The notes under the pieces: generated by a model
What the model was told of the DNA's origin: nothing
Databases searched by the model: none
What the model saw: the letters and a program-made list of their open reading frames with translations, nothing else
Program-made: the position numbers and the translations under genes
Assembly (NCBI GenBank): GCA_964524885.1
Contig: CAZGEJ010000026.1
Coordinates: forward strand, 1,302 to 65,301
Source of the DNA: an uncultured Candidatus Binatia bacterium
GTDB taxonomy: Bacteria > Desulfobacterota > Binatia > HRBIN30
Direction of reading: 5' to 3'
Length of the DNA stretch: 64,000 nucleotides
Shown: positions 3,818-19,679 of the stretch, piece after piece
Layout: each line of letters opens with the position of its first letter
Position numbering within the stretch: the stretch's first letter is position 1

Positions 3818-4827
3818 ACAGCCCTCCCCGCGGCACCCGCAGGAACGGCGATCGGCACCGCGATCGCGACTCCCGAGCGGTAGACGTCGTGACCCAGGCC
3901 CAGTTCGGGGCACGCTTCGAGCACCCGCGGCGCGGCGCCGACCCGATCGGCACCGAGGTCGGCCACCAGTGCGCCCTCGGCCAGCATGCGCACATCGCGC
4001 TTGCGCAGCGAGTTCGCGCCGGGACTGGTGATCCAGCCGCCGCGCACGACCGTATCCCAACGCGCCGGCTCGGCGAGCAGGCCGCGCGCGATCTCGTCAT
4101 GCGTCGGCCGGCAGAGGGACAGACAGAGTCGCATGCCGCTGCCGAGCGCGGGGGCGAAGGAGTCAACGGCCTCGACCGCGAAACGGCCGTAGCCGGAGGA
4201 GCGATCGGCGCCGAGGCCCTCTTCTCCGAGCAGCGCCAAGGCAGCCTCGAAGGCGCGGCGGGTGCTTTCCTCGGCGAAGTCGGCGGCGATGCCGAGACGG
4301 ACACCGTCAGCGAAGCGCACGCCGCCGAACTCGTAGAGCAGGCCGGGAATCGGCCCGCCGCCGAGGCGGTTGACGGCGAGGCGGACGCGGCTCTCACGGT
4401 GCCAGAGCCCCTCGCCGTGGACCGCGGCCAGGGCGGTCGGCAGGAGCACGCCGTCGACGACGTCGGCATCGGGCGCGCGGCTGGCGATCAGGTCGCGCAG
4501 CAGAGCGGCCGGCGCGAAGCGGGCGCCCTTCCAGCGCTTGCGGTCGGCACCGGCAGCTGCCTCGGCGAGGCCTGTCGGCAGCGGCAGCGTCGGCAGCCAG
4601 GTGTCGCCGTTCTTCACCACGGGCAGCGCCGACGACACCGCGAACGGCGGTGCCGCGGCGAGCGCGCCGATGTCCGCGCCGGGCTGCACATGCCGCCAGA
4701 CGGAGCACAGCGCCGCGGCGAGCGTATCGGAGCGCGGCAACTCGTCGAGATCGGCGAGGTCGTCGGCGCGTCCGGTGCCGAGGTGCAGCGGTGCGAGGGG
4801 ACGCAGACGATAGAGGATCAAGCTCAT
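3814..4827 (-). CDS. csm4: Csm4 (type III-A RAMP, Cas5 family).
   Basis: The start MSLILYRLRPLAPLHLGTG is a typical Csm4 N-terminus. It lies inside a longer track ORF (3814..5343). ATGA overlaps on both sides. Length is 337 aa. Confidence 0.85.
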   Translation of the reverse strand: MSLILYRLRPLAPLHLGTGRADDLADLDELPRSDTLAAALCSVWRHVQPGADIGALAAAPPFAVSSALPVVKNGDTWLPTLPLPTGLAEAAAGADRKRWKGARFAPAALLRDLIASRAPDADVVDGVLLPTALAAVHGEGLWHRESRVRLAVNRLGGGPIPGLLYEFGGVRFADGVRLGIAADFAEESTRRAFEAALALLGEEGLGADRSSGYGRFAVEAVDSFAPALGSGMRLCLSLCRPTHDEIARGLLAEPARWDTVVRGGWITSPGANSLRKRDVRMLAEGALVADLGADRVGAAPRVLEACPELGLGHDVYRSGVAIAVPIAVPAGAAGRAV

Positions 4828-5612
4828 GCGGCGACGGTGTTGCGGGCGCCGAAGGCGATCGGCTGGGCGAGCCTGCCTTCGTCGGCAGCGGCGGTGGCGA
4901 GCCCGGCGGCATCGCGCCGCACGATGTGCGTCAGGGTGATCTCGACCTGTCCGTAACCGCGCGAGCCCTGACCGCCGATGGCGTCGTCGGCGACGAGTTG
5001 CAGGCCGCGCTGCAACAGCCCGAGCATCTCCTCCTCGTCGTCCTTGTCGTAGACGTTGAGCGCGACCTCGAAGCCGAAGCGGGCTCCGGCCGGGACGCGC
5101 TCGAACTGGCGCGGATTGGCCTTGCTCGTGAGGCGGTCGATCGCGACCTCGGTCTTCACCTCCGCGTAAGGAAGGTCGAGACCCGACCAGTTCGCCATTT
5201 CGGCCGCGCTTGCCGGCGTCATATGGGCGTCGCGGAAGAGAGCACGCGCGGCGCCGGCGTACGGTTTGTCGGGGTCGTAGGGGCGCGACTCGTCGGCGGG
5301 CACGCCGAAGACGAGGCACACCGCACAACCGCCACATTTGCAAGGAGCAAGTGTGATTCCTTGGACCGCGAAACCGTCGCAGCCTAGGCGGGCGCAGTCG
5401 ACCCGTTCGAGTAGGCTGCGCATCTTGCCCTTGAGGGAAGAGCCGGGGATGTACGGCCGGCGGGTCTTGGGATCGCGAACGACGACTTTATCGGCACCGC
5501 CGATGCCGAGGCCGGTGTCGTTGCCGCCGATGTGCATGCCGGTGAGCGCGGTGATCTCGCCGCGCACGAGGATCTTTTTCACCAATCGGGGAGGCTGGAT
5601 CGAAGTGCTCAT
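4824..5612 (-). CDS. csm3: Csm3 (Cas7 backbone subunit).
   Basis: Start MSTSIQPPRLVKKILVRGEITALTGMHIGG. It has the G-rich loop GSSLKGKMRS and the Csm3 zinc-knuckle-like CKCGGCAVCLVFG. There are 5 nt between the csm2 stop and its ATG, with a GAGG Shine-Dalgarno sequence inside csm2. Confidence 0.9.
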   Translation of the reverse strand: MSTSIQPPRLVKKILVRGEITALTGMHIGGNDTGLGIGGADKVVVRDPKTRRPYIPGSSLKGKMRSLLERVDCARLGCDGFAVQGITLAPCKCGGCAVCLVFGVPADESRPYDPDKPYAGAARALFRDAHMTPASAAEMANWSGLDLPYAEVKTEVAIDRLTSKANPRQFERVPAGARFGFEVALNVYDKDDEEEMLGLLQRGLQLVADDAIGGQGSRGYGQVEITLTHIVRRDAAGLATAAADEGRLAQPIAFGARNTVAA

Positions 5613-5617
5613 GGGTC

Positions 5618-6082
5618 TCACCCTCTGCGGTCGGCCTGACCGCTCTTCTCGTAGAACTTGTGGTACGCGACAACCGCTTCGGCGAAGTCGCAGAAGGCCG
5701 CAACCTGCGCCGGTTGCACTTCTTTCGTCAGCGGCCCGAACACAGCCCATAGGTGATTCGCGCTGTCCCGCTTTTTTTCGTTGGAGCGAGCGGTGAGATA
5801 GGCGAGACGCGAGCGCGTCATGCGGATCTGGGCGATCTGCCGCGCCGGGTCGGAGATATCACGGATCTTCGCGACCGATCCGTAGAAGTTGCGCACCTGA
5901 GAGGTCGTAAAGCCCGCTCGCGACAGGGCCTCGGCGAGTTTTTCTGCGCCTTCGTCGATTCCAGCCGGATCCCCGGCGAGCACGGCTTTCCGGATCGTCG
6001 CAACATCGAGCGTCGTCGGCGGCGGCGCGTTAGACCCGCGTCGAGCGTCAGGACTCCGTGTGTCCCTGAAATCGGCACTCAT
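5618..6082 (-). CDS. csm2: Csm2 (Cas11 small subunit).
   Basis: A 154-aa helical small protein sitting between cas10 and csm3. ATGA overlap with the cas10 stop. Position and size are typical of Csm2. Confidence 0.75.
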   Translation of the reverse strand: MSADFRDTRSPDARRGSNAPPPTTLDVATIRKAVLAGDPAGIDEGAEKLAEALSRAGFTTSQVRNFYGSVAKIRDISDPARQIAQIRMTRSRLAYLTARSNEKKRDSANHLWAVFGPLTKEVQPAQVAAFCDFAEAVVAYHKFYEKSGQADRRG

Positions 6083-8652
6083 CCTTCACTCCTTTTCTCT
6101 CGGCTGGCGAGGTCGGCCCATAGAGCAGCCGGCTGCAGCAGCCAGATCAGGTCGCGCGTCGCGCTCCAGCGGCGATCGCCCGACTCCCATTCCCTGCCGG
6201 GCAGGGCATGCATCAGTTTCTCCAGACGCGGTCGCAACTGGGGGTCGCTCATGCGGGCCAGTGCGTAGGCACGGTTCCAGGCCCAACGACCGCGGCGCAC
6301 CCGGTCCTCGACTTCACGTAGCGAGGCAGTGGGGCGTTCGCGGTGATCTCCTTCGAACGAGTCGCGGTAAAGACCAGCGATGCGCGCCAGACGGTGAATC
6401 CAACTGCGCGCGAGCGGCGAAACGACCGGCGCCGCCCGAGCATCCGTCGGAAGGTCGTCGGCGTCCCTGCCGCAGAGCGCCAGGATCTCGCGCGCAAGCG
6501 CCGCGACGACGTCGAGATCCTCCCAGCGCAGAGCATCCTCGAGGAAGGTCAGTCGGTCCTTGCCCTCGTGCTGCTTGGCGCGCTCTTCGAGTTCGCCTGC
6601 CGCCTTCGCCGCCGCCGCGATGGGCTGCCCTGAGCGCACCAGGGCCAGCCCGCCCGAGATGCCCCAGTTCGGGTTACCGGCGGTGAACTGGCTAAAGGCG
6701 CGTCGGATTTCTAGCGCCATCGCCGGCAGCACCGACCAAGCGCCGACGAGAAAGAGGTCGTCGCCGCCGGTGTAGATGATTTGGACTTTTCCGGCCCACG
6801 GCTCCCTTCCTGCCAGTACCGGCACGTGCCCACTGAAGTAGTAGGCCAGCAGCTTCGACAAGTTGGTGATGCGCGAGAAGGTGCGCTCACTCTCCGGCAG
6901 CCCCTCGCGAAAAATGCGGCCGAGCGAGTCGACGTCCATGCGCAGGACGCCGAGCCGTTCGATACCCTCGGACTCGTCGGCCAAGGTCTCGAAGTCCGGC
7001 GCTCGGCCGCTGCCGGCCGAGCCGAGGAAGAGTGCCACCGCACCGGTCGCCGCCGGCTGGAGGTTGGCTGGGGCGAAAACGTGGACCACGTGACGTGATC
7101 CGGCGTCTGCGAGGACGTCGGGGAGAGGCGCGCGTGAGACGAGGAATCCGCGGCGAAGACGCGGCGGTAGCGCGGTGTACCAGTTGCGCTCACGGCCGCC
7201 GAAGTGCTCGCGCAAGTTGTCGAGTTGAGCCCGCCAATCGTCACCGGCGGCAGCAACGAGGCACGTCGCATCGGGCAGCAGCCGGCCGAGTTGGATGAGT
7301 TCGCGACACTCCGGGCACGAAGTCCGCCCGTTCTCGGCGTCGTCGACGACATCGGCGTCGAGCTTACCGCAGGTGCCACAGAGGGTTCCCAGGCCCGGTT
7401 CGCCGAACGGAGCGAAGACCGCTTCGTAGTCCGCCTCGGCGGCACGAGCGAAGCGGCGGCGACGCTGATGCAACAGGTCGGCGGAGGCGGCCTCCCAGCG
7501 AGTCGCCACCCTGCCGGAGACGAAGTCCTCGCCGGACATCGCCGCGGCACCGACGGCAAAACCGAGCCGGCCGCCGTAGTGACGCTGGAGGTCGAGATCG
7601 ATTTCCGACGCGAGCGTGCGCAGCCGTTCCTCGGCGCGGCGCGGCAGCAGCAGCCAGATCTTGCCGCCACCGTTGTAAAGCGCGTTCACCGGCGGCAGGC
7701 CGAGTTCGTCGAGCAGGAACGACGCAATCCCCTCGGCGAGCAGCTGCAGCATGAACGAACGGCCGCGCAGGGCCCGCGCCGCGTTCTTCGAGGCGATGGT
7801 GTAGAGAAAGCGCTGGATCCCGGTCAGATCAGCGACGGCGAGCAGGTACCGCGTGTCGCCGCGGCGACGCACCTCCGCCTCGGCAAACCCGCCCGGTGAC
7901 CCTAGCAACTCGGCCGTCATGGCGGCGGCAATCGCGGCTGCGGCACGGCTGTGCTCGAAGAGCGAAACGTCGCGCGGCAAGGCGTTGGTAGCCGCCGGCA
8001 CACACCAAGCGTAGCGCTCGTACACAGCCAGAAAGGTCCGCAGGAAAACGCCGACGTCGCCGCGAGGAATCTTGCTCGTGTCCTGGCAGAGGGGATCGAA
8101 TAAGGAGCGGTACTCGCGCGCCGCCGCAGCAGCCGAGGGCTCGGCCGCGGAGATGGGAAACAGCGTCGGGCCGAAATCGAGCGCGGCGAACGGGACCGCG
8201 TAAGCGCCGGCATCGCCGCCGCTTACGCGGCCGAGAAGTGGCTCGAGGCGGCACGTCTGGACGAAATGCCAGCCTGCCTTGGCAGCGACCTCGTCGGGGT
8301 GACCGCGATCCATACCCGCGGAAAGACCGTCGGCCTCTGCGACGACGGCGTCGCCTACGTAAGTAGGCTTGTGGTGCCGCGCCGCCCAGCCGGCGACGCT
8401 GTCATCGTCGCCGCGACCGACGGCAGTGAGCCAGTCCGCGTGGTCGGCGATGAACTGCCATGTGTAGGCCGCGTGATGGTACTGCGCCCGCCCGTCCACC
8501 GTGCGAGTGAATAGGTGCTGGTTGGCGAGGCTCTTGTAGCGCTCGGGATCGGCCTCGGCGCGCTGGGCGAGTTTGCCGACGTCGTGGAGAAGGGCCGCCA
8601 AGGCGACCTGTTGCACCAACTCGCGCTGCTCTGCGGTCAACATCCGCTCCAC
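6079..8652 (-). CDS. cas10: Cas10/Csm1 with an intact HD nuclease motif and GGDD cyclase motif.
   Basis: N-terminal HD motif: ALLHDVGK. Treble-clef zinc-finger region: CGTCGKLDADVVDDAENGRTSCPECREL. Palm-domain GGDD: IIYTGGDDLFLVGAW. 857 aa. Shine-Dalgarno GGGAGGTGGAGCGG immediately 5' of the ATG at 8652. Confidence 0.92.
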   Translation of the reverse strand: MERMLTAEQRELVQQVALAALLHDVGKLAQRAEADPERYKSLANQHLFTRTVDGRAQYHHAAYTWQFIADHADWLTAVGRGDDDSVAGWAARHHKPTYVGDAVVAEADGLSAGMDRGHPDEVAAKAGWHFVQTCRLEPLLGRVSGGDAGAYAVPFAALDFGPTLFPISAAEPSAAAAAREYRSLFDPLCQDTSKIPRGDVGVFLRTFLAVYERYAWCVPAATNALPRDVSLFEHSRAAAAIAAAMTAELLGSPGGFAEAEVRRRGDTRYLLAVADLTGIQRFLYTIASKNAARALRGRSFMLQLLAEGIASFLLDELGLPPVNALYNGGGKIWLLLPRRAEERLRTLASEIDLDLQRHYGGRLGFAVGAAAMSGEDFVSGRVATRWEAASADLLHQRRRRFARAAEADYEAVFAPFGEPGLGTLCGTCGKLDADVVDDAENGRTSCPECRELIQLGRLLPDATCLVAAAGDDWRAQLDNLREHFGGRERNWYTALPPRLRRGFLVSRAPLPDVLADAGSRHVVHVFAPANLQPAATGAVALFLGSAGSGRAPDFETLADESEGIERLGVLRMDVDSLGRIFREGLPESERTFSRITNLSKLLAYYFSGHVPVLAGREPWAGKVQIIYTGGDDLFLVGAWSVLPAMALEIRRAFSQFTAGNPNWGISGGLALVRSGQPIAAAAKAAGELEERAKQHEGKDRLTFLEDALRWEDLDVVAALAREILALCGRDADDLPTDARAAPVVSPLARSWIHRLARIAGLYRDSFEGDHRERPTASLREVEDRVRRGRWAWNRAYALARMSDPQLRPRLEKLMHALPGREWESGDRRWSATRDLIWLLQPAALWADLASREKRSEG

Positions 8653-8786
8653 CTCCCTGCCACCGAAACCAATGCCGTCTCCGGTCGGATTAATCGCTTC
8701 GCGCTGCTCTCGTCAACACAGCTCGCCCAACTTGCGGCGCCGACGAAACACCTTGTCAGTAGCTCCGCCATCCGCCACCTCTTCCC

Positions 8787-9062
8787 TCAGTGCTCCGCCC
8801 CACCAAACGCCGCCGCGCCAACAACCGACCAAGCCGTCGGCGGCTCCGGGTAGCCAGCAAGGCAGAGCACCTGGGCATCCTGATGGAAGCAGACGGCCAC
8901 CACTTTTCCGTTCGTCATGCGCGAGGAGACGCTGGAGCGGGCGGATATCTGACAGCGATCCGCACTGAAATGAGCGAAGGACATCGCGAGCCCGCGACCT
9001 GTTCCCACTGCCTCCATTAGAAGCGGTGTGAGAATCGGCACCCTCGCATACGATTCCCACAC
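8787..9062 (-). CDS. Possible small ORF (91 aa) in the divergent leader between cas10 and the helicase; no recognisable domain.
   Basis: ATG-initiated ORF: MWESYARVPILTPLLMEAVGTGRG... The GC3 bias is weaker than in neighbouring genes. It could instead be a non-coding promoter/leader region. Confidence 0.2.
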   Translation of the reverse strand: MWESYARVPILTPLLMEAVGTGRGLAMSFAHFSADRCQISARSSVSSRMTNGKVVAVCFHQDAQVLCLAGYPEPPTAWSVVGAAAFGGAEH

Positions 9063-9122
9063 GGCCTGTCAGACGACAACGCTTGTCGCGTCTCTACGAG
9101 CAGCAACACCAAAGGAGACGCC

Positions 9123-11708
9123 ATGAACACCTCGACGATCCGCAAACACCCGCCCATCCTCGATCCAACACCGGTCAGTCCCGACCAGATCGCCGCTCTC
9201 GCCGACTCGCTCGGCCTGCCGATCGTCAACCGCGTCGCTCTGCCCGAGCGCAGCGCACACCACGCTCCGGTGCCGGCCACACTCGCCGCTCCGTTGCGCG
9301 ATACTCTGTCGAATCGCTTCCCGGCCGGGCTTTATGCCCACCAGTCGGCGGCGATCGAGGCTTCGATTGCCGGCAATGACCTGTGTGTCGCCACCTCGAC
9401 CGCCTCGGGCAAAAGCCTCATCTTCATGAGCGCTGCCGCCCATCGGCTGTGCGCCGACCCGAAGGCTCGCGTCCTCGCGCTCTATCCGGCCCGTGCCCTC
9501 ATGCAGGACCAGATCGAGAAATGGCGGACCTTCCTTGCGCCGCTCGGACTCTCCGTCGGGCTCATCGACGGCGGCGTCGACACGCGGCAGCGCGCCGAGA
9601 TCGTCGAGCACAACCACGTCGTCTTGATGACCCCGGACGTTGCTCACGCCTGGGCGCTGTCGCGCGCCGGGGAGCGGCCCGTGCGCCGGTTCCTCGAGCG
9701 GCTCGACCTCGTCGTGCTCGACGAGGCGCACGTCTACGAGGGCGTGTTCGGCACCAACATGTCGTACTTCATGCGCCGCCTGGACATCGTCGCCGGCGGC
9801 TTCGACCTGATCGCCGCCACCGCGACCATTGGCAGGCCCGGCGCGTTCATCGAGAAACTCACGGGCAGGCAGGTGCAGACCTTCGCCGCCGACAGCGACG
9901 CCTCGCCGGCGCCGGCCCGAACCCTGCTTCTCGCCGACGGCCGGGGCAAGAAGCGCTTCCAGCGCATCGCCGACCTGCTCAAGGGCATCGCCCAGCAGCG
10001 CCTCGGTCGCTTCATCGCCTTCGGCGATTCGCGCCGCCTGGTGGAGCGCATGGTGGCCGCCGCCCGCCGCCCGGCCGATGCCGACACGGGCGCGGACCCT
10101 GATGACGCGGTCGACAACGAGGCTGATCTCTCGTTGGACAGCGACGCCGGCGAGATTCTGCCTTACCGTGCCGGCTACGAGACCGAGGACCGCAACGACA
10201 TCCAGAAGGCGCTGGCGCAAGGCCAACTGCTCGGCGTCGTGTCGACCAGCGCGCTCGAGCTCGGACTCGACATCGGCGACATCGACGTCGTCGTCCTGCT
10301 CAATCCGCCGACGAGCACCAAGGCCCTGTGGCAGAGGCTCGGCCGCACCGGGCGTGCCCGTCCGGGGGTGTGTATCGTCATCGACGACCGCGGCACGCTG
10401 GTGGCGCGTCCGCACGGGCTCGAGAGCTACCTGGCCCGCGAGGTCGAGCCGAACTGGCTCTACCTCGACAATCGCTACATTCAGTACGGCAACGCGTTGT
10501 GCGCGGCACAGGAGGCGCGCGTCTGCGGCATCGAGGCGGGCGCAGCGAAGGCGCTGGCGACGTTGCCGGAGAAGTTCCGGGCGATGGTGGAGAACGAGCT
10601 TCACCCGACGGAGGTGGTGCCGGACGATCTCTATCCGTTGAAGCAGCGGGCACAGGCCGGGCCGCACTACGAGTTTCCCCTGCGCAGCAGCATGGAGATG
10701 AACTTCAAGGTGCAGGGTCCGTTCGGCCGCTCCCTGGGCGAGCTGACCTACGGCCAGGTGCTGCGCGAGGCGTATCCGGGAGCGGTCTACTATTACATGG
10801 CCAAACCGTTCCGGGTGATTGCCTTCCGCTACCGGCAGCGCGAGATCCAGACGCGGCGCGACAAGCACCTGACGACACACCCGCTGGCGCAGACGATGGT
10901 ATTCCCGCGCTTCGCCGGCGGCACGCTGGCGCTGCGGCGCAGTGCGGGGGCGTTCGTCGCCGAGGCCGAGGTGCAGGTGAGCGAGCGGGTGATCGGCTTC
11001 AAGGAGATCCGCGGCAGGAACGAGGAGGAGCACCTCTACGGGCCGGAGTCCCCGTGGTCCCAGCGCGACCTGACGCGGTTCTTCCCGACGACGGGGGTGT
11101 GCTGGTTCTCGCCGCGCAAGGCCTTTCTCGCCGAGCGGGTGGGGGACGCGATTCTCGAGGCGTATTGCTCGACCTTCGGAGTGCAGCCCCGGGATCTCGG
11201 TGTCGGATTGTTCCATGCCAACGTGTCGCCGCTCGGCGGGGAGAAGGTACAGGGGCTGTGCGTCTACGACGCGACGCACGGCAGTCTGCGGCTGACGCAG
11301 CGGCTGGCAGAGAACTTTTCCGAGGTGATCGAGGCGGCACGGGCAACGGCTGCGGCGGAGGGAGAGCGCGAGCTCGCGCTCGAGCTCGAGGCCTTCGCCG
11401 CGGAGGTCGCCGGCCTCGCGCCGGCGCCGGTGGAGCACGTAAAGCTGCCTCTCGGCGAGGCCGTTGCCGACGAGTGGGTGACGGTGGTGGCGGCCGGAGG
11501 GCCGGCGATGTTGGTGACCGACGCCCGGACGGCGGAGGTGGTGGTCAAGGATCACCGCTATACGCCACGCGGACTTCTCTACGAGCTCGAGCCGGAGCAG
11601 CCGGGCGTGCGGTGGCTGGTGGCGGCCCGCGACGTGCAGCCGATCTTCGGCCGCAGCCCGCTGGCCAAGCTCAACCTGGAGACGGGAGAGATCCGGGAGG
11701 TGGAGTGA
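9123..11708 (+). CDS. SF2 DEAD/DEAH-box helicase (861 aa) with a ~300-aa C-terminal domain of unknown function (MrfA/DUF1998-like architecture, but no CxxC cluster).
   Basis: Helicase motif Q (YAHQSAAI), motif I (TSTASGKSLIF), motif II (VLDEAHVYEGVFG), motif III (ATATIG) and motif VI (QRLGRTGRAR). Shine-Dalgarno AAAGGAGA 5 nt before the ATG. Divergent from cas10. Confidence 0.85.
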   Translation: MNTSTIRKHPPILDPTPVSPDQIAALADSLGLPIVNRVALPERSAHHAPVPATLAAPLRDTLSNRFPAGLYAHQSAAIEASIAGNDLCVATSTASGKSLIFMSAAAHRLCADPKARVLALYPARALMQDQIEKWRTFLAPLGLSVGLIDGGVDTRQRAEIVEHNHVVLMTPDVAHAWALSRAGERPVRRFLERLDLVVLDEAHVYEGVFGTNMSYFMRRLDIVAGGFDLIAATATIGRPGAFIEKLTGRQVQTFAADSDASPAPARTLLLADGRGKKRFQRIADLLKGIAQQRLGRFIAFGDSRRLVERMVAAARRPADADTGADPDDAVDNEADLSLDSDAGEILPYRAGYETEDRNDIQKALAQGQLLGVVSTSALELGLDIGDIDVVVLLNPPTSTKALWQRLGRTGRARPGVCIVIDDRGTLVARPHGLESYLAREVEPNWLYLDNRYIQYGNALCAAQEARVCGIEAGAAKALATLPEKFRAMVENELHPTEVVPDDLYPLKQRAQAGPHYEFPLRSSMEMNFKVQGPFGRSLGELTYGQVLREAYPGAVYYYMAKPFRVIAFRYRQREIQTRRDKHLTTHPLAQTMVFPRFAGGTLALRRSAGAFVAEAEVQVSERVIGFKEIRGRNEEEHLYGPESPWSQRDLTRFFPTTGVCWFSPRKAFLAERVGDAILEAYCSTFGVQPRDLGVGLFHANVSPLGGEKVQGLCVYDATHGSLRLTQRLAENFSEVIEAARATAAAEGERELALELEAFAAEVAGLAPAPVEHVKLPLGEAVADEWVTVVAAGGPAMLVTDARTAEVVVKDHRYTPRGLLYELEPEQPGVRWLVAARDVQPIFGRSPLAKLNLETGEIREVE

Positions 11709-11709
11709 G

Positions 11710-12249
11710 ATGGAGTTCCTTCATCCGACCTGTCCGCACGCAGGACGTAGATCCACCGACTCTCCAGAAACGCATCAGGAAAGGATAGAGGACATGCATC
11801 GACGTGGATCCACCTCAACATCGGAACCCCTCCAACGGGATGACATTCCACGCCAACTCGAGCCCGGATCGCACATCATGGTGAAGAGGACGCTGCAGTA
11901 CTCGCATCATGGAGTCTACATCGGCGACGGTCGGGTCATTCACTTCTCAGGCGAACCCTTCGACATGGCCAATGCGTCGATCTGCGAAACGACCATTGAG
12001 GATTTCCTGAACGGCGGCGTTCCGCGGGTGGTTCTGCACGGCGACGAGCAACTGGCCGCCGATGTCGTCGTCCAGAACGCGAGCAAGCGACTCGGCGAAA
12101 CCGGCTACCGTCTGACGGCGAACAATTGCGAACACTTCGCGACCGAATGCTGCACAGGAAAGCCGTCTTGCAAGCAGTTCCAGGCCTTCATCTGGGGTGG
12201 TCTGATTGGTCTGGGGTTGCACAACAACCTCAACGGAGAAAGGTCCTAG
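11710..12249 (+). CDS. LRAT / H-box-NC domain protein (NlpC/P60 superfamily acyltransferase/phospholipase-like).
   Basis: The segment LEPGSHIMVKRTLQYSHHGVYIGDGRVIHFSG aligns with the PLAAT/LRAT His box. The C-terminal NCEHFATECC matches the NCEHF catalytic-Cys motif. It starts 1 nt after the helicase stop. Confidence 0.7.
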   Translation: MEFLHPTCPHAGRRSTDSPETHQERIEDMHRRGSTSTSEPLQRDDIPRQLEPGSHIMVKRTLQYSHHGVYIGDGRVIHFSGEPFDMANASICETTIEDFLNGGVPRVVLHGDEQLAADVVVQNASKRLGETGYRLTANNCEHFATECCTGKPSCKQFQAFIWGGLIGLGLHNNLNGERS

Positions 12250-12251
12250 AA

Positions 12252-12446
12252 ATGAATGAACACGATGCGCAGGCGAAAGGTGCTGTTGCAGGCGGCGAGT
12301 CAGTCAAGCTGGTCGCTGCCACGGCGGCAGCGGGAGTCGCGGCCTTCATTGTAGGGGGAATCGTGCTGGCGGTTCCGGTGACCGCTGCCGTTGGGTGTGT
12401 CGCCTATCGACAAATCAAGAACAGCAGCCTTGGCACAACCGTATAG
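12252..12446 (+). CDS. Small membrane protein (64 aa, one Ala/Gly/Val-rich transmembrane helix).
   Basis: MNEHDAQAKGAVAGGESVKLVAATAAAGVAAFIVGGIVLAVPVTAAVGCVAYRQIKNSSLGTTV. Shine-Dalgarno GGAGAAAGG upstream. 2 nt after the LRAT-like stop. Confidence 0.45.
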   Translation: MNEHDAQAKGAVAGGESVKLVAATAAAGVAAFIVGGIVLAVPVTAAVGCVAYRQIKNSSLGTTV

Positions 12447-12547
12447 GACCGCCCGCTCCTCGGAGTCATTGCGGCGCATAGCTTCTCCCGCATCCTGGAG
12501 GACTCACCCGCCGCCGGGAGTCTGCTCTTGAACCTGCCACCGGGTCG

Positions 12548-13318
12548 GTGGCAGACAGCCTAGAGCATGGTCGTTCAGCCAGCCTTCGAGCTCGAGCAGG
12601 GGTTCCGATGAACCTCGGCGAGGCACTGCGGATTCTCGGGCCCGAGAAAGCGGCCGGCGACCGGGAGTTGGCCGCGGAGGTGCTGCGCGCCAAGATTGCA
12701 CAACTCGTGCGCGCCAAGGGAACCTATCCGGCGGGCCGCGACGACGCGGACGACGCCGTCCAGCGCGTCCTGCTGCGCATGCTGCGCCGGCTACGTCCTT
12801 TGCAAGGCGATGCGGAGGGCGTAGCCGCTTCGTACCTGCGGTCGGCCGTCGACCACGATTTCGCCGACCAGCTCAAGCGCAAGCGCACCCGCACTAAGGC
12901 GCGGCCGACGGCGGTCCACACGCCGACCGCGCTGGACGCAGACTCCGGCGAGGACCACCCCGATCCGGTCATCGTCGACCCGGTGTCTCCCGAAGAGATC
13001 GCCGCGGGCCGAGCCGAGGCCGAGCGGATCCAGAAGATCTTCCTCGACCAGATCGTTGCCGGGCTCGACGCCCGCAACCCCCAAGGCCGCGGAGCCGTAA
13101 TCGTCGCGCAACTGCAACGCATCGCGCGCGGCGAAACTACGGTCGAAGAAATCATCGAGGCCGAAGGCGGGGACTTCACGAAGGCACGCAACCGCTTTTA
13201 TCAAAACGTGCACCGACTCCGAGAGAGGATTGCGGCCGAGATCGACAGGTGCCACCCCGACGATCGGCCGGCCCTGTACGACGTGCTCGAGCGTCTGAAA
13301 ATCCAGAGGACCCGATGA
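12548..13318 (+). CDS. ECF-type sigma-70-like protein (putative). An alternative ATG start at 12608 is possible.
   Basis: Region-2-like DDAVQRVLLRMLRRLRPLQGDAEGVAASYLRSAVDHDFADQLKRKR. C-terminal region-4-like HTH EEIIEAEGGDFTKARNRFYQNVHRLRERI. The sigma assignment rests on motifs only. Confidence 0.45.
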   Translation: MADSLEHGRSASLRARAGVPMNLGEALRILGPEKAAGDRELAAEVLRAKIAQLVRAKGTYPAGRDDADDAVQRVLLRMLRRLRPLQGDAEGVAASYLRSAVDHDFADQLKRKRTRTKARPTAVHTPTALDADSGEDHPDPVIVDPVSPEEIAAGRAEAERIQKIFLDQIVAGLDARNPQGRGAVIVAQLQRIARGETTVEEIIEAEGGDFTKARNRFYQNVHRLRERIAAEIDRCHPDDRPALYDVLERLKIQRTR

Positions 13319-13541
13319 ACCGGAGGGACAACAACCGGTCGGTCGCCCGCTTCGACTCGCCCCCACGAAGTCGGCACGCCGCGGCAATCGCGGCGCGGGA
13401 AGATTCCGCGGCGGGCTGCGCCGCCCGCTTTGTCTCCCGGCGGGAGCGGGCCAGAACTTCGAGCTCGCATGTCAGACGCTCGGCCCTCGCGCGTCCGTAT
13501 CGCCATGCCATCTTGCTACGCCGCCCAGGAAAGCTCCCACG

Positions 13542-14633
13542 ATGACCCTCCGGCTGCCCCCCGAAGAGCGCGCCCGTCTTGGCCTTAGCGACACCGCCCC
13601 CGGTGATACCGAAGTTCTCGAGATCGCCGCCCCTGCCGCCGATCAGGGCCGTGGCACCCTCACCGCCTTCACGACGGTTGGAGTCATTGCCGGCGGCGCC
13701 CCGTCGCTGGTAAGCCTCGTGGCGGATCTCTTCGCTCAAAAGCAGCCGACCGCCGAGTTCGCGTCCGTCTCCTCTCGCATCGCGCGCAACGCAAACCTCG
13801 CCATCTCCCTGCACCGGCAGAACCACGGCCTGGTGCTGGTGGAGTCGCCGCGGCACCGCCTCCACGGACGCGGCGTCGTGCCTGACGCCGTCGTTCATCC
13901 CGACAGCGATCCCGCCGCCGTCGTCGCCGACCTCAACGCCGGCCCGGCGGCGATCGAGTTGTCCGACGGTAGCCGCATCGTCCTCCAATTCCGTCAAGGC
14001 AAGATCATGCTCGACTGGCTCCCAGCGCACTCGGACGCACCGCTTCCCACTACGATTTCCCCACCACTGCTCCGGCTGATGCACGACACACGAGACCCAT
14101 GGGCGCACGGACTGATCCACGCGGCGCTCACTGCCACCGACGCTTGGACCCAACTGGTCGCCGCCGGAACCTTTTGCCGCCTCTGGGAGCCCACCTCAGC
14201 CGACGAGATCCGTGACGCCGTGCAGCGCGCCATCGCCGGAACTCCGGAGCCGCACCAGACGGAACTACGAACCTGGGGGAGCACTCTGTCATCGGACGAC
14301 AAGGCGGCGCTCCGCCGCACCTGCCTGACCCGCATCGACGGCATGCATCGCCTCCTCGACGACCTCACACTCGAGATGGCGCCGGACGATACCGCGTGGA
14401 TTGCTCGCTTCGAGCAGGCTTGCCGCGAGCGCGATGACCTCGAGTCGGTGCGGGCCGACCTCGCTGCGGCCGGAGTTGTCGACGAAGTCGACATCGCACT
14501 CGAGGGGCTCGACGCGCGTGGGCGCTCTCTCGTGACGGCACTGCCGGTCGTGATCCGGATCGACGACGAGCGACTGCAACGGGCGGCACGCGTCGATCCG
14601 AACGCTTGGTGGGCCGAGCCGGCGCTCGCCTGA
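13542..14633 (+). CDS. Hypothetical protein (363 aa) between the sigma-like gene and the Lon-like protease; possible protease substrate, anti-sigma or sensor.
   Basis: Long ORF with good GC3 bias. Shine-Dalgarno AGGAAAG before the ATG. Mixed beta/alpha-looking sequence with no recognisable motif. It overlaps the next ORF start by 28 nt. Confidence 0.6.
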   Translation: MTLRLPPEERARLGLSDTAPGDTEVLEIAAPAADQGRGTLTAFTTVGVIAGGAPSLVSLVADLFAQKQPTAEFASVSSRIARNANLAISLHRQNHGLVLVESPRHRLHGRGVVPDAVVHPDSDPAAVVADLNAGPAAIELSDGSRIVLQFRQGKIMLDWLPAHSDAPLPTTISPPLLRLMHDTRDPWAHGLIHAALTATDAWTQLVAAGTFCRLWEPTSADEIRDAVQRAIAGTPEPHQTELRTWGSTLSSDDKAALRRTCLTRIDGMHRLLDDLTLEMAPDDTAWIARFEQACRERDDLESVRADLAAAGVVDEVDIALEGLDARGRSLVTALPVVIRIDDERLQRAARVDPNAWWAEPALA

Positions 14634-16483
14634 AGCCACCCGTGAATCTGACCCGATCCGAACGCGAACGCCGGACGCGGAGTCTGCGCGCGGCTCGATG
14701 GTGTTGGCCGCAAGCCGGCACTCATGAGTTTCGCGAGGCGCTCTCCCTCGTCTCCGAAGGCCCGCCCGCACTTTCTCCCGGCGAAGTGCCGCTGGTGACC
14801 GTCGACGCCCGCGGCTTCGCCGGCAGCCTGTGGTGCCTACGCATGGGAGCAGCGGATCACGAACCCGGACTCGCATCCTTCGAGGGTAGCGCCCGGCGCG
14901 CCTGGCAGAATGCCGCGCTCGCGGTGCCGCGCTCCCTACCGCTTCTCTGGTCCGACGTGCGGCGAGTCGCGCAACGCGACCTTCACGCCGAGCACCTCGC
15001 CCAACACCTCCTGCGTGACGGCGCCGCGCCGCCGGCCCAAGAACTCACCGGAACGTCATTCGGTCTATCCTTCGTGCTCGCGTTGACGTCTCTGGTGATC
15101 GATCGGCCGCTCCCCGACACGTGGGTGGCAACAGCGGAAGTCAGCGCCGACGGCGCCATCGGTCCGGTCGAAGGGCTCGAGGCGAAGATCGCGGTGATCG
15201 AGCGGCACGCGCCGCACCTCAGCCAACTACTCGTCGCCGCCGCCCAGGAAGAAGCAGCGCATAGTCTGGCTGGGCGCCTGGAAATCGTGCCCGTCCGCAG
15301 CGCGGCTCAGGCGATCCGGCGGGTCTTCGGAGACGACGCCTTCGCGGCCTGTCTCGGTGCCTATGCCGCCGACGCAACGCAGCGCTCCGAGGTCGTCGAC
15401 TTCTTCTTCCGCCAAGCGCTGGTCGGCAGCCGTCGGGTCTATGTCGACTGGGGACCCATCGCGCGGGCGGCAACCACGGCCCTCGAGACCTGGACCGGCC
15501 TCGACGCAAACGACCGCTGGCGGCTCGAGCTGGCGCGCGGCATCGCCGACCGCCATGCCGGCGGCCGGACGGCGATCAGCGCCCCCAGCGACAGCCAGCT
15601 ACGGCGTTTTCCACGTTCACTTCGAGTGTCGCTGGTGGCGCAGTTGGTCCAACACTGCCATGACGTAGGCACACCCAGTCCCAAGGAGATGGAGCCCTAC
15701 CTCGCGGACACGAGCATCTTCGTACCGCTCGAGGACGCGTTCGCGCAGCATCTCGCGGCATGGGGCACGCGGGCGCGACTTTTGGCATCGACGGGGAAAC
15801 CGGCGGAGGCACTGCGCCTCCAAGAGAACCTCGCCATGGCCTGGGTAGAGCGGCTGGAATACGCCCAGACGACCTTTCCACTCTCGGAGTGGTTTCGCCT
15901 GGGCGGCGCCCTCGCTACACTGCCGCACGGCTGTACCCGGGCGGAGGCGACCGCCGCTGTCGATCGCGCGGAGCGCCTTTACGGAGAGTTGGCCGCCCGC
16001 GTCGGCTTCGACCCGCAGAGCGCAGGGTACGTGGACCTTGCCCGCACACGCGCCAGGCTCGTGCGGCTCGGCGACAGTTCCGGACGAGCGGCACCAGCGG
16101 ACGACGCGGTCGCAGCTGCCGACACGGTTCTCGCGCGTCTCGCGGACGACGAAGTCTATGTACCGTGGCACGTGCGCTTCGCGGCCCTGCGGCTGCGGAT
16201 TGCCTTGTGCGAGAGCAGCGGCGACAGCCGAACGGCCGCGATTCTTGGTCGAATGCTCGCCGACGCTGATTCCGGCGAGAACAGCGAACGCACCCGCGCG
16301 GCACACCGGGCGGCGATTCTAGTCCGTCTCGACCGCGCGCTGCGCCATAACGACGACGAAGAAGCAGCGATCGCCGTCGACTTGCTGACGGCGGACGACC
16401 CGGGGCCGATGGGTCACCTACGCGCCGTCGCCGACCCTCCCCGCGGTAGGGCTGCGTACGTCGCGGCTTACTACCCGTACTGA
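14606..16483 (+). CDS. Lon-like (S16) Ser-Lys protease domain fused to a ~390-aa Ala/Leu/Arg-rich (probably helical) C-terminal domain.
   Basis: ELTGTSFGLSFVLALTSLV ... VATAEVSADGAIGPVEGLEAKIAVIERH. Putative Ser151 (GTSFG, like GPSAG) and Lys194 (GLEAK, like GGLKEK) are 43 residues apart, as in E. coli Lon S679/K722. The start is uncertain; an ATG at 14843 is also possible. Confidence 0.65.
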   Translation: MVGRAGARLKPPVNLTRSERERRTRSLRAARWCWPQAGTHEFREALSLVSEGPPALSPGEVPLVTVDARGFAGSLWCLRMGAADHEPGLASFEGSARRAWQNAALAVPRSLPLLWSDVRRVAQRDLHAEHLAQHLLRDGAAPPAQELTGTSFGLSFVLALTSLVIDRPLPDTWVATAEVSADGAIGPVEGLEAKIAVIERHAPHLSQLLVAAAQEEAAHSLAGRLEIVPVRSAAQAIRRVFGDDAFAACLGAYAADATQRSEVVDFFFRQALVGSRRVYVDWGPIARAATTALETWTGLDANDRWRLELARGIADRHAGGRTAISAPSDSQLRRFPRSLRVSLVAQLVQHCHDVGTPSPKEMEPYLADTSIFVPLEDAFAQHLAAWGTRARLLASTGKPAEALRLQENLAMAWVERLEYAQTTFPLSEWFRLGGALATLPHGCTRAEATAAVDRAERLYGELAARVGFDPQSAGYVDLARTRARLVRLGDSSGRAAPADDAVAAADTVLARLADDEVYVPWHVRFAALRLRIALCESSGDSRTAAILGRMLADADSGENSERTRAAHRAAILVRLDRALRHNDDEEAAIAVDLLTADDPGPMGHLRAVADPPRGRAAYVAAYYPY

Positions 16484-16560
16484 CTCCCGCCTTGGGTGTC
16501 AGACAGGAGCGACGCGCGCGTCTTTCCACCCGGCAGCAAACGCCGGAAAGGGAGGACGCC

Positions 16561-16782
16561 GTGAACGCTCATCATCGAAACCACAAGCGCCTGTGCCGCG
16601 GCTGCGGCGACCACTGGGCCCGCTACCAATACCGCGGGCGTGTGCGCTGGGACCGACGCCACGACGTCTGCTTCCGCTGCTGGCGGTCGCTGATGGATCG
16701 CCACAGGCCGGTCCGCTCGCGCTTCAACGTGCCGGCACCGATTCACGTGCCATGGCAATCGCCGCTACGCGAAGCTGCCTGA
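16561..16782 (+). CDS. Possible small basic zinc-ribbon protein (~73 aa) with two CxxC pairs.
   Basis: Shine-Dalgarno GGAAAGGGAGGA, 4 nt, then GTG. VNAHHRNHKRLCRGCGDHWARYQYRGRVRWDRRHDVCFRCWRSL... Lies in the gap after the Lon-like gene. Confidence 0.3.
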   Translation: MNAHHRNHKRLCRGCGDHWARYQYRGRVRWDRRHDVCFRCWRSLMDRHRPVRSRFNVPAPIHVPWQSPLREAA

Positions 16783-17106
16783 TGTCGGAGTTCGGTTCCG
16801 ACGTGCCTCGGCAAGCAAAACCGATGACGTTCCCCGAAGCTCTCTTCGTCGATCTTCTCAGAAAATTCCTGGGCCACCCGGAGTGTTTAGTTGCACTCGA
16901 AACCTCCCAGCGCCCGGCGTCGGGCGCGGCCCGCCACCCTTCTCTCCGCGAGGCGCAGGAGATCCCCTCAAAGCTCCGTGAGGGAATCCTGGCGACAGGT
17001 CTGCGTTCACCCGCAGCGGGCCCGCCGAGTACAACTCGGCGCTCCAGGGCGCTGCGCGCCCCTCTTCATCTGGCTTCAGCCGAGGCTACTGTTAACGGCG
17101 ACGTCT

Positions 17107-18666
17107 CTATCTCGGCGTCTCTGCGTCGCGGCGTTGGTCCGCATCGGCGCGCCGCTCCCACACTTGGAAACGAGCGCCGTCCCGATGCACGCGATAGTCG
17201 CGGCGCACCAGCGGCCACCAGCTCTTGGCCCGCGCCGTGAGATAGCGGCGATCGACGAAGATGAACCGCGCCTCACGCCGGATCGTTTGCCATGCTTCGT
17301 CACGCTCGGCCGGGGTGACGGATTCGTCCTCGAAGCGAATCAAGCGCGTCGGGTTGCGGCGTTGCGTCAGGTGCAACAGCCCAGCCGGCCAGCCGAAGAC
17401 CACCGTCGGACCGCCATCATCCGGCAAACTCCGCAGCTCTCGCTCCAATCGTCCGACCGTGCCGGCCCACTGCGGCTCGACGTAAATCGTGCCGCCATGT
17501 GGCAACTGGAACGGTACCGAACGAGTGAAGCGCAGCGCCGCCGTGCCCGTGTACTCCGCCGGCAAGCCGATGTCCCAACCGCGCCACAACCCCAGGGCCA
17601 GGGCCAACGGCGCCAGTACCCCGAACGCCGCCAGCACCCCGCCAAAGCGCGGCATCCGCCGCACGAACTCGGCAACCGCGGCGAACCACAACAAGAAGAT
17701 CACCGGACCGCCCTGCAGAAAGCGCGCGACCATCGAAATGCGCACCACCTGGTTCGCCGCCAGCAAGCTGAACACCGCCACCATCGCCAACACGCCGGCC
17801 CGCCGATCCCATGGCTCGCGCCAACCCTTCGCCACGAGATAGACCGGCCATCCCCCCGCGCTCGCGAAGGCGACCGACGGCAGCGCCAACGCCGGCCAAC
17901 CACCCGAAGCCGCGGCGACCCGCATCAGGTCGAGACGCCCATGCCCCTCCTGCATCGCCCGCAAGAACAACTGCTCGATCCACAGCCGAGGCTCGATGTC
18001 TCCGACCAAGTACCAACCCACGACGAACGCACCGGCCAACCCGCCGACGGCAACACACACCATGCGCTGCAACGCCTCGCCCCAAGCGCCGCGCCGGCTA
18101 CCGACTTCGTGCAACAGCGGCAGGAGTCCGGCGGCGCCCCAGGCGAACAACGCGACGTCGTGACGGAACCAAAAGCCGACACCGGCCAACACGCCGGACC
18201 ATACGAAACCCGCCATCTGCGCGCGCGCCAACGCTCGCGCCGCGGCCGACAACACCGCCAACGGCACGAGGGCATAAAAGGTCTTGTGCCACGGGCCCGG
18301 CATCAGCACGACGGCGATCGCCGCAGCAGCAGCCCAAGGCCACGGCATCAGGCGCCGCCCGAGCGCCAGGGTCAGCCCGACGACCACACCCCGCAGAAGG
18401 GCCCACATCCAGCGCACCGCACGCGCATCGCCCGCCGCTGCATCGAGGGTCGCCTGGGCCAAATGAAACTGGCCCGGCGGGTAGATCGAGACGAAATCAC
18501 GGTGGGCCACTTGCCCGGAACCGACCCGCGCCGCGCACTCCAGCAGCCACGCCTCGTCCTGGGTCAGATTGCCGTACGCCGCGTAGGCAAGGTGAAGGCC
18601 AGCCGCGGCAACGATGGCAGCCACGGTCACGACGGCGGCGAAGCGTGGTTCCTTTCCCGACGACAT
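17107..18666 (-). CDS. Polytopic membrane glycosyltransferase, GT-C fold (ArnT/PMT/GT39/GT83-like).
   Basis: 519 aa with many hydrophobic helices, Trp/Arg-rich loops and a C-terminal soluble domain. This is the typical dolichyl/undecaprenyl-phosphate-sugar transferase architecture. The 670-aa plus-strand ORF across the same region is Arg-rich shadow. Confidence 0.65.
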   Translation of the reverse strand: MSSGKEPRFAAVVTVAAIVAAAGLHLAYAAYGNLTQDEAWLLECAARVGSGQVAHRDFVSIYPPGQFHLAQATLDAAAGDARAVRWMWALLRGVVVGLTLALGRRLMPWPWAAAAAIAVVLMPGPWHKTFYALVPLAVLSAAARALARAQMAGFVWSGVLAGVGFWFRHDVALFAWGAAGLLPLLHEVGSRRGAWGEALQRMVCVAVGGLAGAFVVGWYLVGDIEPRLWIEQLFLRAMQEGHGRLDLMRVAAASGGWPALALPSVAFASAGGWPVYLVAKGWREPWDRRAGVLAMVAVFSLLAANQVVRISMVARFLQGGPVIFLLWFAAVAEFVRRMPRFGGVLAAFGVLAPLALALGLWRGWDIGLPAEYTGTAALRFTRSVPFQLPHGGTIYVEPQWAGTVGRLERELRSLPDDGGPTVVFGWPAGLLHLTQRRNPTRLIRFEDESVTPAERDEAWQTIRREARFIFVDRRYLTARAKSWWPLVRRDYRVHRDGARFQVWERRADADQRRDAETPR

Positions 18667-18695
18667 AGTGCTAGCTCGTTCGCCTTTCGCATCGC

Positions 18696-19619: not shown

Positions 19620-19679
19620 CCACGCCCCGACACCCTCCGGCGCTTGCCCCTCACCGGCGCCCGGGGGGATGATTGGAGC

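Follow-up and report, generated by a model that had tools for sequence, protein, structure and literature searches.

The stretch of DNA considered here, referred to throughout as the window, spans 64,000 nucleotides of a contig from an uncultured Candidatus Binatia bacterium. It contains a complete type III-A csm operon on one strand and, divergent from it, a gene for a superfamily 2 (SF2) helicase related to MrfA/YprA, which is followed by genes for an LRAT-type enzyme, a 64-residue membrane protein, a sigma-like protein, a 363-residue protein, and a Lon-type protease. The original prediction for this region described the helicase, the LRAT-type enzyme, and the small membrane protein as one abortive-infection cassette in which the helicase gates a membrane-active effector. 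Comparison of the locus with its relatives leads to a different picture. The three genes are a one-off juxtaposition, and the helicase is, on balance, probably part of a small regulon controlled by a sigma factor, into which a split LRAT gene has been inserted as cargo. The locus as a whole is classified as a protease/sigma signalling module beside a type III CRISPR system, together with an MrfA-like helicase.

A promoter-like motif shared across the locus

The regulatory reading is carried by a short bipartite motif, TGTCAGA-N15/16-CGTC, which was found by comparing the regions upstream of helicase genes. Four exact copies are present in the 64 kb of the window, against an expectation of 0.09, and none of 100 shuffled sequences reached four. 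Allowing one mismatch yields no additional sites in the window. All four copies are located inside 7.6 kb, each 12–46 nt upstream of a start codon. The first (P1, 8928–8954, minus strand, 16-nt spacer) lies 12 nt before a 42-residue open reading frame (ORF), beyond which cas10 follows. The second (P2, 9067–9092, plus strand, 15-nt spacer) ends 30 nt before the helicase ATG, the third (P3, 13470–13495, plus strand) ends 46 nt before the gene for the 363-residue protein, and the fourth (P4, 16497–16522, plus strand) ends 38 nt before a gene (16561–16782, plus strand) whose translation is a basic 73-residue protein with a zinc-ribbon-like CxxC...CxxC pattern, a putative member of the regulon that has no match in PADLOC. 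The 42-residue ORF behind P1 (8787–8915, minus strand) is the remnant of a conserved protein of about 129 residues that starts with MTN.K. In comparison with the versions in two related loci, L087 and L091, an internal deletion has joined its N- and C-terminal ends. The full-length versions, of 129 residues in L087 (9318–9707) and 128 residues in L091 (862–1248), occupy the equivalent place, divergent from the helicase. They show the pattern MTN.KND... / ...GGTQVHCL.GWP.PP and contain no known domain.

The motif is conserved by position as well as by sequence. The window and seven related loci (L087, L088, L089, L091, L092, L093, and L205) together contain 19 instances, in which the spacing is always 15–16 nt. 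The motif precedes the helicase gene in L087, L088 (two copies), L089, L091, and L093 and, corresponding to P3, the gene for the homologue of the 363-residue protein in L089 (14612), L092 (6042), and L205 (2377). The P4 position, after the Lon gene, is occupied in L205 (5413–5438), where the following gene encodes a 71-residue homologue of the zinc-ribbon protein (5478–5693). The P1 position, on the divergent strand before the protein of about 129 residues, is occupied in L087 (9742–9717) and L091 (1286–1261). In L088, a further copy on the minus strand (2447–2422) precedes an ARPP-1 gene.

Because the boxes and the distance between them are preserved and the spacer sequence is not, the motif bears the signature of a promoter, and its form points to a promoter of the extracytoplasmic function (ECF) type. 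The promoter recognised by ECF41 sigma factors is TGTCACA-n16-CGTC, and ECF promoters typically have CGTC as their -10 box (Wecke et al. 2012, PMC3426412). The motif of the window is one base off the ECF41 promoter and resembles it in the bipartite -35/-10 arrangement, the CGTC -10 box, the 15–16 nt spacing, and the short distance to genes near a sigma gene. The two differ in that the -35 box of the window is invariably TGTCAGA, and the comparison concerns the promoter boxes, the local 236-residue sigma-like protein not being matched to ECF41.

The transcription unit that would start at P2 can be outlined from the same region. A scan of positions 8500–13700 for sigma-70 promoters returned nothing. 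No terminator-like site and no further motif copy was found from the helicase to the end of the sigma gene, and the sole plus-strand terminator-like hairpin from P2 to P3 (13410–13425) follows the sigma gene. Consequently, the helicase, LRAT, 64-residue protein, and sigma genes plausibly form one transcript.

The sigma-like, 363-residue, and Lon-TPR genes

The best candidate for the reader of the motif is the protein encoded between the LRAT and 64-residue genes and P3. This 236-residue protein (12608–13318, plus strand; the ORF is open from 12548) appears to be a divergent ECF-like sigma factor. It matches the NCBIfam sigma70-ECF model TIGR02937 with an E value of 2.6e-5, below the cut-off of the model, and four of the five family members match it independently; the Pfam Sigma70_r2 match is weak (E 0.03). 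The family alignment (A5) contains conserved blocks resembling sigma regions 2 and 4. The protein has no PADLOC match.

The gene for the 363-residue protein (13542–14633, plus strand) invariably has the sigma gene on one side and the Lon gene on the other, and homologues are placed likewise in L089, L092, L205, and L206. The protein has no match in Pfam, the PDB, or PADLOC, and is regarded as a candidate anti-sigma factor or protease substrate. The 613-residue protein encoded next (14642–16483, plus strand) is a Lon-type (S16) serine protease. The family profile finds Lon proteolytic domains with E values of about 2e-11, the Ser139/Lys182 dyad is invariant, and Pfam tetratricopeptide repeat (TPR) matches in several family members assign a TPR-like character to the C-terminal half. 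The family is large, with at least 612 representatives at 50% identity.

The order helicase, sigma, 363-residue protein, Lon is common to the window, L089, and L092. The identities between the window and the latter two loci are unequal (63–66% for the helicase, 28–29% for sigma, 29% for the 363-residue protein, and 43–46% for Lon), which argues against recent shared synteny. The three-gene core recurs in L205 and L206, so that it is linked to the helicase in three of five loci.

The closest described counterpart of this module is CalpL/CalpT/CalpS, a SAVED-Lon protease, anti-sigma factor, and ECF-like sigma factor associated with type III CRISPR (bioRxiv 10.1101/2024.05.08.593097; PMC11229360). 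As in that system, an ECF-like sigma factor, a protein of unassigned fold, and a Lon protease are encoded next to a type III locus, the Cas10 of which has an intact GGDD motif. The differences are nevertheless substantial. The protease of the window has a TPR-like C-terminal half in place of a sensor, no SAVED or CARF domain being found in it by Pfam, PADLOC, or PDB searches, and its best PADLOC matches, to CRISPR-Lon/SAVED-Lon models, are weak (E about 4e-4 over about 60 residues). Identification of the protease as CalpL itself was rejected because a SAVED domain is missing and neither phmmer nor the family profile, which does not retrieve CalpL from the PDB, gave a CalpL match. The protein is therefore described here as a Lon protease with a TPR-like region and not as a SAVED-Lon protease. 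In addition, modules of the type seen in the window also occur in loci without cas genes in the fetched sequence (L092 and L206), and the window module differs from CalpLTS in its linkage to a helicase and in its visible candidate promoter motif.

Proposed circuit and the sigma question

Taken together, these features suggest the following arrangement. The helicase gene would stand first in a transcription unit with TGTCAGA-N15/16-CGTC as its promoter, and the four motif copies would define a small local regulon comprising the helicase, the cas10/csm side, the pair of 363-residue protein and Lon-TPR protease, and the zinc-ribbon gene. The motif would most likely be read by the local ECF-like sigma factor, whose gene separates the LRAT insert from the 363-residue gene. 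On the model of CalpL/CalpT/CalpS, the Lon-TPR protease may destroy the 363-residue protein, as a candidate anti-sigma factor, on a postulated trigger. Once freed, the sigma factor would activate the helicase operon, the csm side, and the zinc-ribbon gene, as well as its own inhibitor and the protease, which could reset the system. The LRAT and 64-residue genes would represent a low-GC, horizontally acquired, split gene that landed in a variable slot behind the helicase. The LRAT enzyme would probably be co-transcribed with the helicase and, if it is defensive, could act as an induced membrane-lipid effector. Any antiviral role of the locus is a matter that we infer.

Several observations weigh against this reading. 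The assignment of the sigma factor is based on sub-threshold matches, and an hhalign comparison of the family with Escherichia coli RpoE was not significant. The 363-residue protein contains no recognisable anti-sigma domain, and the trigger of the protease is postulated by analogy. The window and L205 have the same promoter motif, and their Lon-TPR proteases and 363-residue proteins are 74% and 63% identical, while sigma, at 33%, is the fastest-evolving member, which is unexpected if sigma reads the motif. Four loci on short contigs (L087, L088, L091, and L093) show the motif upstream of the helicase and no sigma gene; for L087 and L205, which come from the same sample, no end overlap joining the helicase and sigma loci was found. 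The motif is missing directly upstream of sigma in L205, and L206 has the three-gene core without helicase or motif. The promoter role of the motif and the co-transcription of the genes behind it are read from sequence. The spacing of the helicase and LRAT genes also has to be counted here. The possible gap of 1 nt and a Shine–Dalgarno-like GGAGG inside the 3' end of the helicase gene, upstream of the ATG at 11710, suggest translational coupling, which is compatible with a newly evolved partnership of helicase and LRAT enzyme.

Part of this evidence favours another explanation, which accepts the promoter but assigns its recognition to an unlinked ECF sigma factor of the host, such as one of the ECF41 type, within a general stress response, the local sigma-like protein being otherwise employed. 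The single-base difference from the ECF41 consensus agrees with it, as do the sub-threshold matches of the local protein to sigma models. It has to be treated as a serious rival because sigma is the least conserved member, contigs with the motif lack a visible sigma gene, L206 has the core without the motif, and the trigger is postulated. On the other hand, the four copies in 64 kb all fall in one 7.6-kb locus, none is found upstream of other genes of the window, and the motif flanks the sigma, 363-residue, and Lon genes at equivalent positions in L089, L092, and L205. Furthermore, the weak matches of the local protein are exclusively to sigma-70/ECF families. An unlinked sigma factor is thus improbable, if far from negligible, and the local sigma factor is preferred as the candidate reader.

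The LRAT enzyme and the 64-residue membrane protein

The three plus-strand ORFs of the presumed cassette are present as first described: the helicase (9123–11708), the LRAT-type enzyme (11710–12249), and the small membrane protein (12252–12446). Searches with tblastn using the window proteins covered 87 helicase loci, and loci added later raised this number to about 95. A word-index search for the LRAT protein gave six matches, and scans of metagenomes and viral contigs gave 110 LRAT loci. The LRAT and 64-residue genes lie beside none of the approximately 95 helicase loci apart from the window's own copies, which among the 87 loci recur in just two further assemblies of the window's own sequence. 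Conversely, the helicase is found in none of the 110 LRAT loci. The closest LRAT relatives (42–49% identity) occur in unrelated contexts without helicases, and neighbour clustering across the 110 loci revealed no conserved partner of the LRAT family. The trio is therefore a composite and not a conserved three-gene defence system, and the proposal that it functions as a unit gated by the helicase fails on the refuting condition stated with it, the homologues not being found together elsewhere.

The individual identities given to the two smaller proteins do hold. The 179-residue protein is a genuine LRAT/PLAAT-family permuted NlpC/P60 enzyme. It matches Pfam LRAT (PF04970) with 88.9 bits against a cut-off of 24.3 (E 3.9e-25, profile positions 2–119 of 120), and PDB matches to PLAAT3/4 at about 3e-7 align the catalytic residues. 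These are His66/67, His78, and Cys140 in the 179-residue numbering, the last within NCEHF and in the permuted order, and the two His and NCEHF are invariant among the homologues (alignment A2). On this basis, the protein is predicted to be a phospholipid acyltransferase or phospholipase A. The 64-residue protein is rich in Gly and Ala and, as had been proposed, hydrophobic, with a 19-residue Kyte–Doolittle maximum of 2.46 and a hydrophobic stretch at about residues 16–55; it has no Pfam match, and neither of the two proteins has a PADLOC match. No signal peptide or secretion-system context was identified for the LRAT protein.

The tight packing that had been emphasised is confirmed in part. 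A gap of 2 nt separates the LRAT stop from the 64-residue gene. The 1-nt spacer between the helicase and LRAT genes is not secure, because the LRAT start is uncertain. Possible starts are M1 at 11710 (179 residues), M29 at 11794 (a 151-residue call), and M57 at 11878 (a 123-residue NCBI call). M29 is favoured because the homologues are 141–146 residues long.

The relationship between the two small genes is most likely one of fission. A fused hydrophobic tail follows the LRAT domain in 51 of 90 distinct homologues, consisting either of one transmembrane (TM) segment with basic residues or of a long Gly/Ala-rich region. The tail of the window enzyme after NCEHF reaches a hydropathy maximum of 0.76 and thus lacks a TM segment. 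The LRAT protein and the 64-residue ORF therefore appear to derive from a common LRAT-TM gene, with the 64-residue protein as the detached tail; since the similarity of the latter to fused tails is purely compositional (E 0.03–0.06), this origin is something we infer. Related arrangements are known. PLAAT/HRASLS and LRAT enzymes have the Pfam LRAT domain, the His-His-Cys (NCEHF) residues, and the permuted fold order in common with the window enzyme. Eukaryotic PLAATs are tail-anchored, much like the window enzyme's homologues with their C-terminal membrane anchor, whereas in the window the anchor is on a separate polypeptide of 64 residues. The bacterial permuted NlpC/P60 lipid enzyme LnsA is likewise an LRAT-like enzyme paired with a membrane protein, LnsB (PMC13559823), although the 64-residue protein is unrelated to the CPBP family of LnsB. 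The type VI secretion system toxin Tox-Act1, a lipid-targeting permuted NlpC/P60 enzyme, provides a precedent for toxicity of this kind (PMC12994826).

Base composition marks the two genes as foreign. GC content is 0.56–0.62 across 11700–12550, compared with 0.68–0.73 on both flanks and about 68% for the whole 64-kb window, and GC at third codon positions (GC3) is 0.62–0.72 in the LRAT and 64-residue genes, compared with 0.78–0.89 in their neighbours. The low values indicate that this segment was inserted by horizontal acquisition, and it is missing from the related loci L087, L089, L092, and L205. In the search for insertion scars flanking the low-GC segment, short repeats alone were found. 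Among them is a perfect 13-nt inverted repeat (11819–11831 and 12598–12610; CATCGGAACCCCT / AGGGGTTCCGATG), which brackets most of the insert and may be due to chance or be an insertion scar.

The LRAT-TM family is mobile and widespread in bacteria and phages. In L174–L180 and L182, PHROGs annotation places homologues as inserts within phage modules for head morphogenesis or terminase; L178, for example, shows the succession terminase, portal, head morphogenesis, LRAT-TM (5989–6696), scaffold, major head protein. One locus among the 110, L134, offers a second juxtaposition of LRAT and type III genes. Here, Cas6-like and cas10 genes (4398–8103) begin about 750 nt after the gene for a fused LRAT/Gly-Ala-rich multi-TM protein (3014–3652), whose reading frame contains a stop immediately before the domain. 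As a single case, it is suggestive.

These results also bear on a weaker form of the original idea, namely that the helicase and LRAT enzyme form an abortive-infection pair that arose recently and is restricted to this lineage. Phage nucleic acid would be sensed by the MrfA-like helicase, which would then activate the LRAT enzyme and its membrane partner, or recruit them, so that the membrane is damaged. The tight packing, the possible 1-nt gap with its Shine–Dalgarno-like sequence, the setting in a defence island, and the intact catalytic residues are what such a pair would present. However, no co-occurrence is seen in either set of loci, the slot behind the helicase holds unrelated cargo or nothing in the closest helicase relatives, and LRAT-TM homologues occur solo in unrelated contexts that include phage head modules. 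The LRAT start may also lie 85–170 nt downstream of the position that would give the tight gap. A dedicated pair is accordingly unlikely, and the insertion of cargo behind a sigma-controlled helicase is preferred.

The MrfA-like helicase

The helicase is an 861-residue protein with an SF2 core (Pfam DEAD 9.3e-27, Helicase_C 4.8e-14), and its Walker A (TASGKS), DEAH (residues 200–203), TAT, and QRxGRxGR motifs fall in family-invariant columns (alignment A1), as the first reading of the sequence had recognised. The resemblance to MrfA noted at that stage is borne out as well. The family profile matches MrfA (6ZNP) at 8e-70 over residues 20–459, where the alignment ends. An AlphaFold model built with a 29-sequence alignment (pLDDT 80.6, pTM 0.72) matches chain 6ZNP_A in Foldseek with an E value of 1.3e-40 over 759 aligned columns and a TM(target) of 0.68, compared with about 1e-16 for all other helicases. 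The assignment to the MrfA architecture is based on these two matches.

Compared with the Bacillus subtilis MrfA/YprA structures (6ZNP, 6ZNQ, and 6ZNS), the N-terminal region and both RecA domains of the DEAH SF2 core can be aligned by sequence. Overall identity is about 21%, and the C-terminal half is unalignable by sequence. The match to the MZB/DUF1998 family (PF09369) is weak (E 0.0063, 17.6 bits) and below the gathering score of 24.2. Four conserved Cys in the MZB-like region are, as in MrfA, a feature of the helicase family. They are near-invariant (27–29 of 29 sequences) at window positions 660, 682, 709, and 713, and the window protein keeps three of them, with Val at 709. The earlier statement that the protein lacks the four-Cys cluster is thus correct in that the cluster is incomplete, but not for the family, nor for three of the four positions in the window. 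The window helicase further differs from MrfA in a beta-rich C-terminal domain of about 80 residues (approximately 785–861). According to the predicted structure, the protein has the MrfA architecture with a diverged or degenerate MZB region and this added domain.

The family comprises proteins of about 850 residues, with 1668 matches at about 50% identity across several phyla. A contig search with the single helicase sequence returned nothing, and its repetition with alignment A1 gave the family loci. In a plasmid search, the helicase had one match, in the Thermomicrobium roseum megaplasmid, where the context is uninformative, and the Lon-TPR protease had none. The PADLOC helicases BrxHI/BrxHII, SngC, DrmA, DruE, DpdF/J, and HamB have the SF2 core in common with the window protein, but no partner genes of their systems are present in the window. 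Matches in PADLOC-DB 2.0 are partial and restricted to the core, the best being BrxHI with 109 bits over residues 68–316. BrxHI/II, SngC, DrmA, and DruE were ruled out as identities on the grounds of these partial matches. The view that the three genes belong to no named defence system is upheld by the PADLOC results.

The neighbourhoods of the helicase family are variable and often defence-like, including type III-A csm, BREX, ARPP/Macro, toxin–antitoxin, and restriction-modification genes. Neighbour clustering of 31 close loci revealed no conserved neighbour of any kind, and the Pfam families adjoining 24 loci are heterogeneous (transposases, Cas1/Cas4, BrxA/BrxC, AAA_21, PLD, and metabolic enzymes). 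L087, whose helicase is 72% identical, has the same divergent csm operon with a cas10 that is 79% identical, and no LRAT gene. In L089 (63%) and L092 (66%), sigma-like, 363-residue-like, and Lon-like genes come after the helicase. Relatives with 63–72% identity thus keep csm and/or the sigma, 363-residue, and Lon genes, and the LRAT position is empty or holds other genes: a ParD-like antitoxin gene and others in L092, and an antitoxin-like gene in L087. In L088 (1441–2367) and L090 (7141–8127), the helicase is adjacent to ARPP-1 (PF20208) and a Macro-domain protein. In L090 (10956–14213) and L016 (5244–8859), it lies directly upstream of BrxA/BrxB/BrxC-like genes. In L092, the alignment of the helicase (1263–3524) with the window protein begins at residue 103 of the latter, so that the Walker A region is missing, and an aldo-keto reductase gene adjoins it. 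This copy has probably lost its 5' end and is decaying; the sigma, 364-residue, and Lon genes that follow look intact.

These neighbourhoods have to be set against the possibility that the locus has no defence role, the helicase being a housekeeping repair enzyme of the MrfA type, the LRAT protein an LnsA-like lipid or lipoprotein enzyme, and the proximity to CRISPR incidental. MrfA, the closest solved relative, is a DUF1998 helicase that acts in mitomycin C repair, and in the B. subtilis mrfAB operon its partner is the MrfB-type exonuclease. Distant helicase relatives with 31–36% identity are found among metabolic genes, and LRAT-like enzymes that act on lipids or lipoproteins are known from bacteria (PMC13559823). 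However, the context of the window is a defence island and not a repair operon, and an MrfB-type exonuclease is absent among the frequent neighbour families of the 31 close helicase loci. Helicases with at least 59% identity adjoin csm genes, BREX BrxA/B, ARPP/Macro conflict genes, a type I restriction subunit, and MazE/PIN. Moreover, the promoter is locus-specific and common to the helicase, the csm side, and the protease module, and the LRAT insert is of foreign composition. A purely housekeeping role is very unlikely in view of this, and a sigma-controlled regulon remains the preferred reading. Least probable is a direct role of the helicase as a type III-A Csm accessory in target clearing or unwinding, interference, or adaptation, outside the output of the sigma circuit: the divergent cas10–helicase arrangement is kept in two loci, but this may be plain synteny of related genomes, most helicase relatives, some at 59–72% identity, have no csm genes nearby, and Pfam finds no CARF or SAVED domain in the helicase.

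Surroundings of the locus

The defence-related character that had been ascribed to the surroundings is evident on both the CRISPR side and among the relatives described above. The cas10/csm1 gene of the type III-A system (6079–8652, minus strand) matches NCBIfam TIGR02578 at 6.8e-156 and encodes HD at residues 22–23 and GGDD at residue 629. Downstream of it in the operon, all on the minus strand, follow csm2 (5618–6082), csm3 (4824–5750), and csm5 (2495–4060). The last visible accessory gene of the operon (804–2498, minus strand) encodes a CARF-HEPN-CARF protein of the Csx1/Csm6 family, a ribonuclease activated by cyclic oligoadenylate (cOA), with a full-length match to the PADLOC model CARF2--CARF_HEPN_CARF (8e-114) and to NCBIfam TIGR02221. 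Despite the complete csm operon, no CRISPR array was detected in the window (1–64000), and the array is presumably situated beyond position 1. No Rfam match was obtained for positions 1–20000. Four tandem units of 93 nt with 66–71% identity at 57152–57523 are unrelated to the three genes and are probably a repeat inside a coding region.

Implications

The notion of a defence system in which a helicase gates a lipid effector does not hold, and the value of the locus lies in its promoter-defined regulon and not in the LRAT trio. For the LRAT family, the survey documents small LRAT-domain proteins with membrane tails as widespread in bacteria and phages. For the signalling module, a more far-reaching interpretation can be offered tentatively, as a possibility that is more doubtful than the regulon itself: a SAVED-less cousin of CalpLTS, joined with an MrfA-like helicase, may constitute a previously undescribed transcriptional immune circuit whose regulon can be read from its promoter, with feed-forward to csm, an anti-sigma/protease reset, the helicase, and exchangeable cargo effectors. 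Among the CalpLTS papers searched, none sets out a target promoter or regulon for the released sigma factor. If the interpretation is true, the locus would provide the first defined output regulon for a CRISPR-linked protease–sigma pathway. By marking a few genes, among them the MrfA-like helicase and those of the csm side, the motif supplies concrete reporters and candidate outputs for such a pathway.

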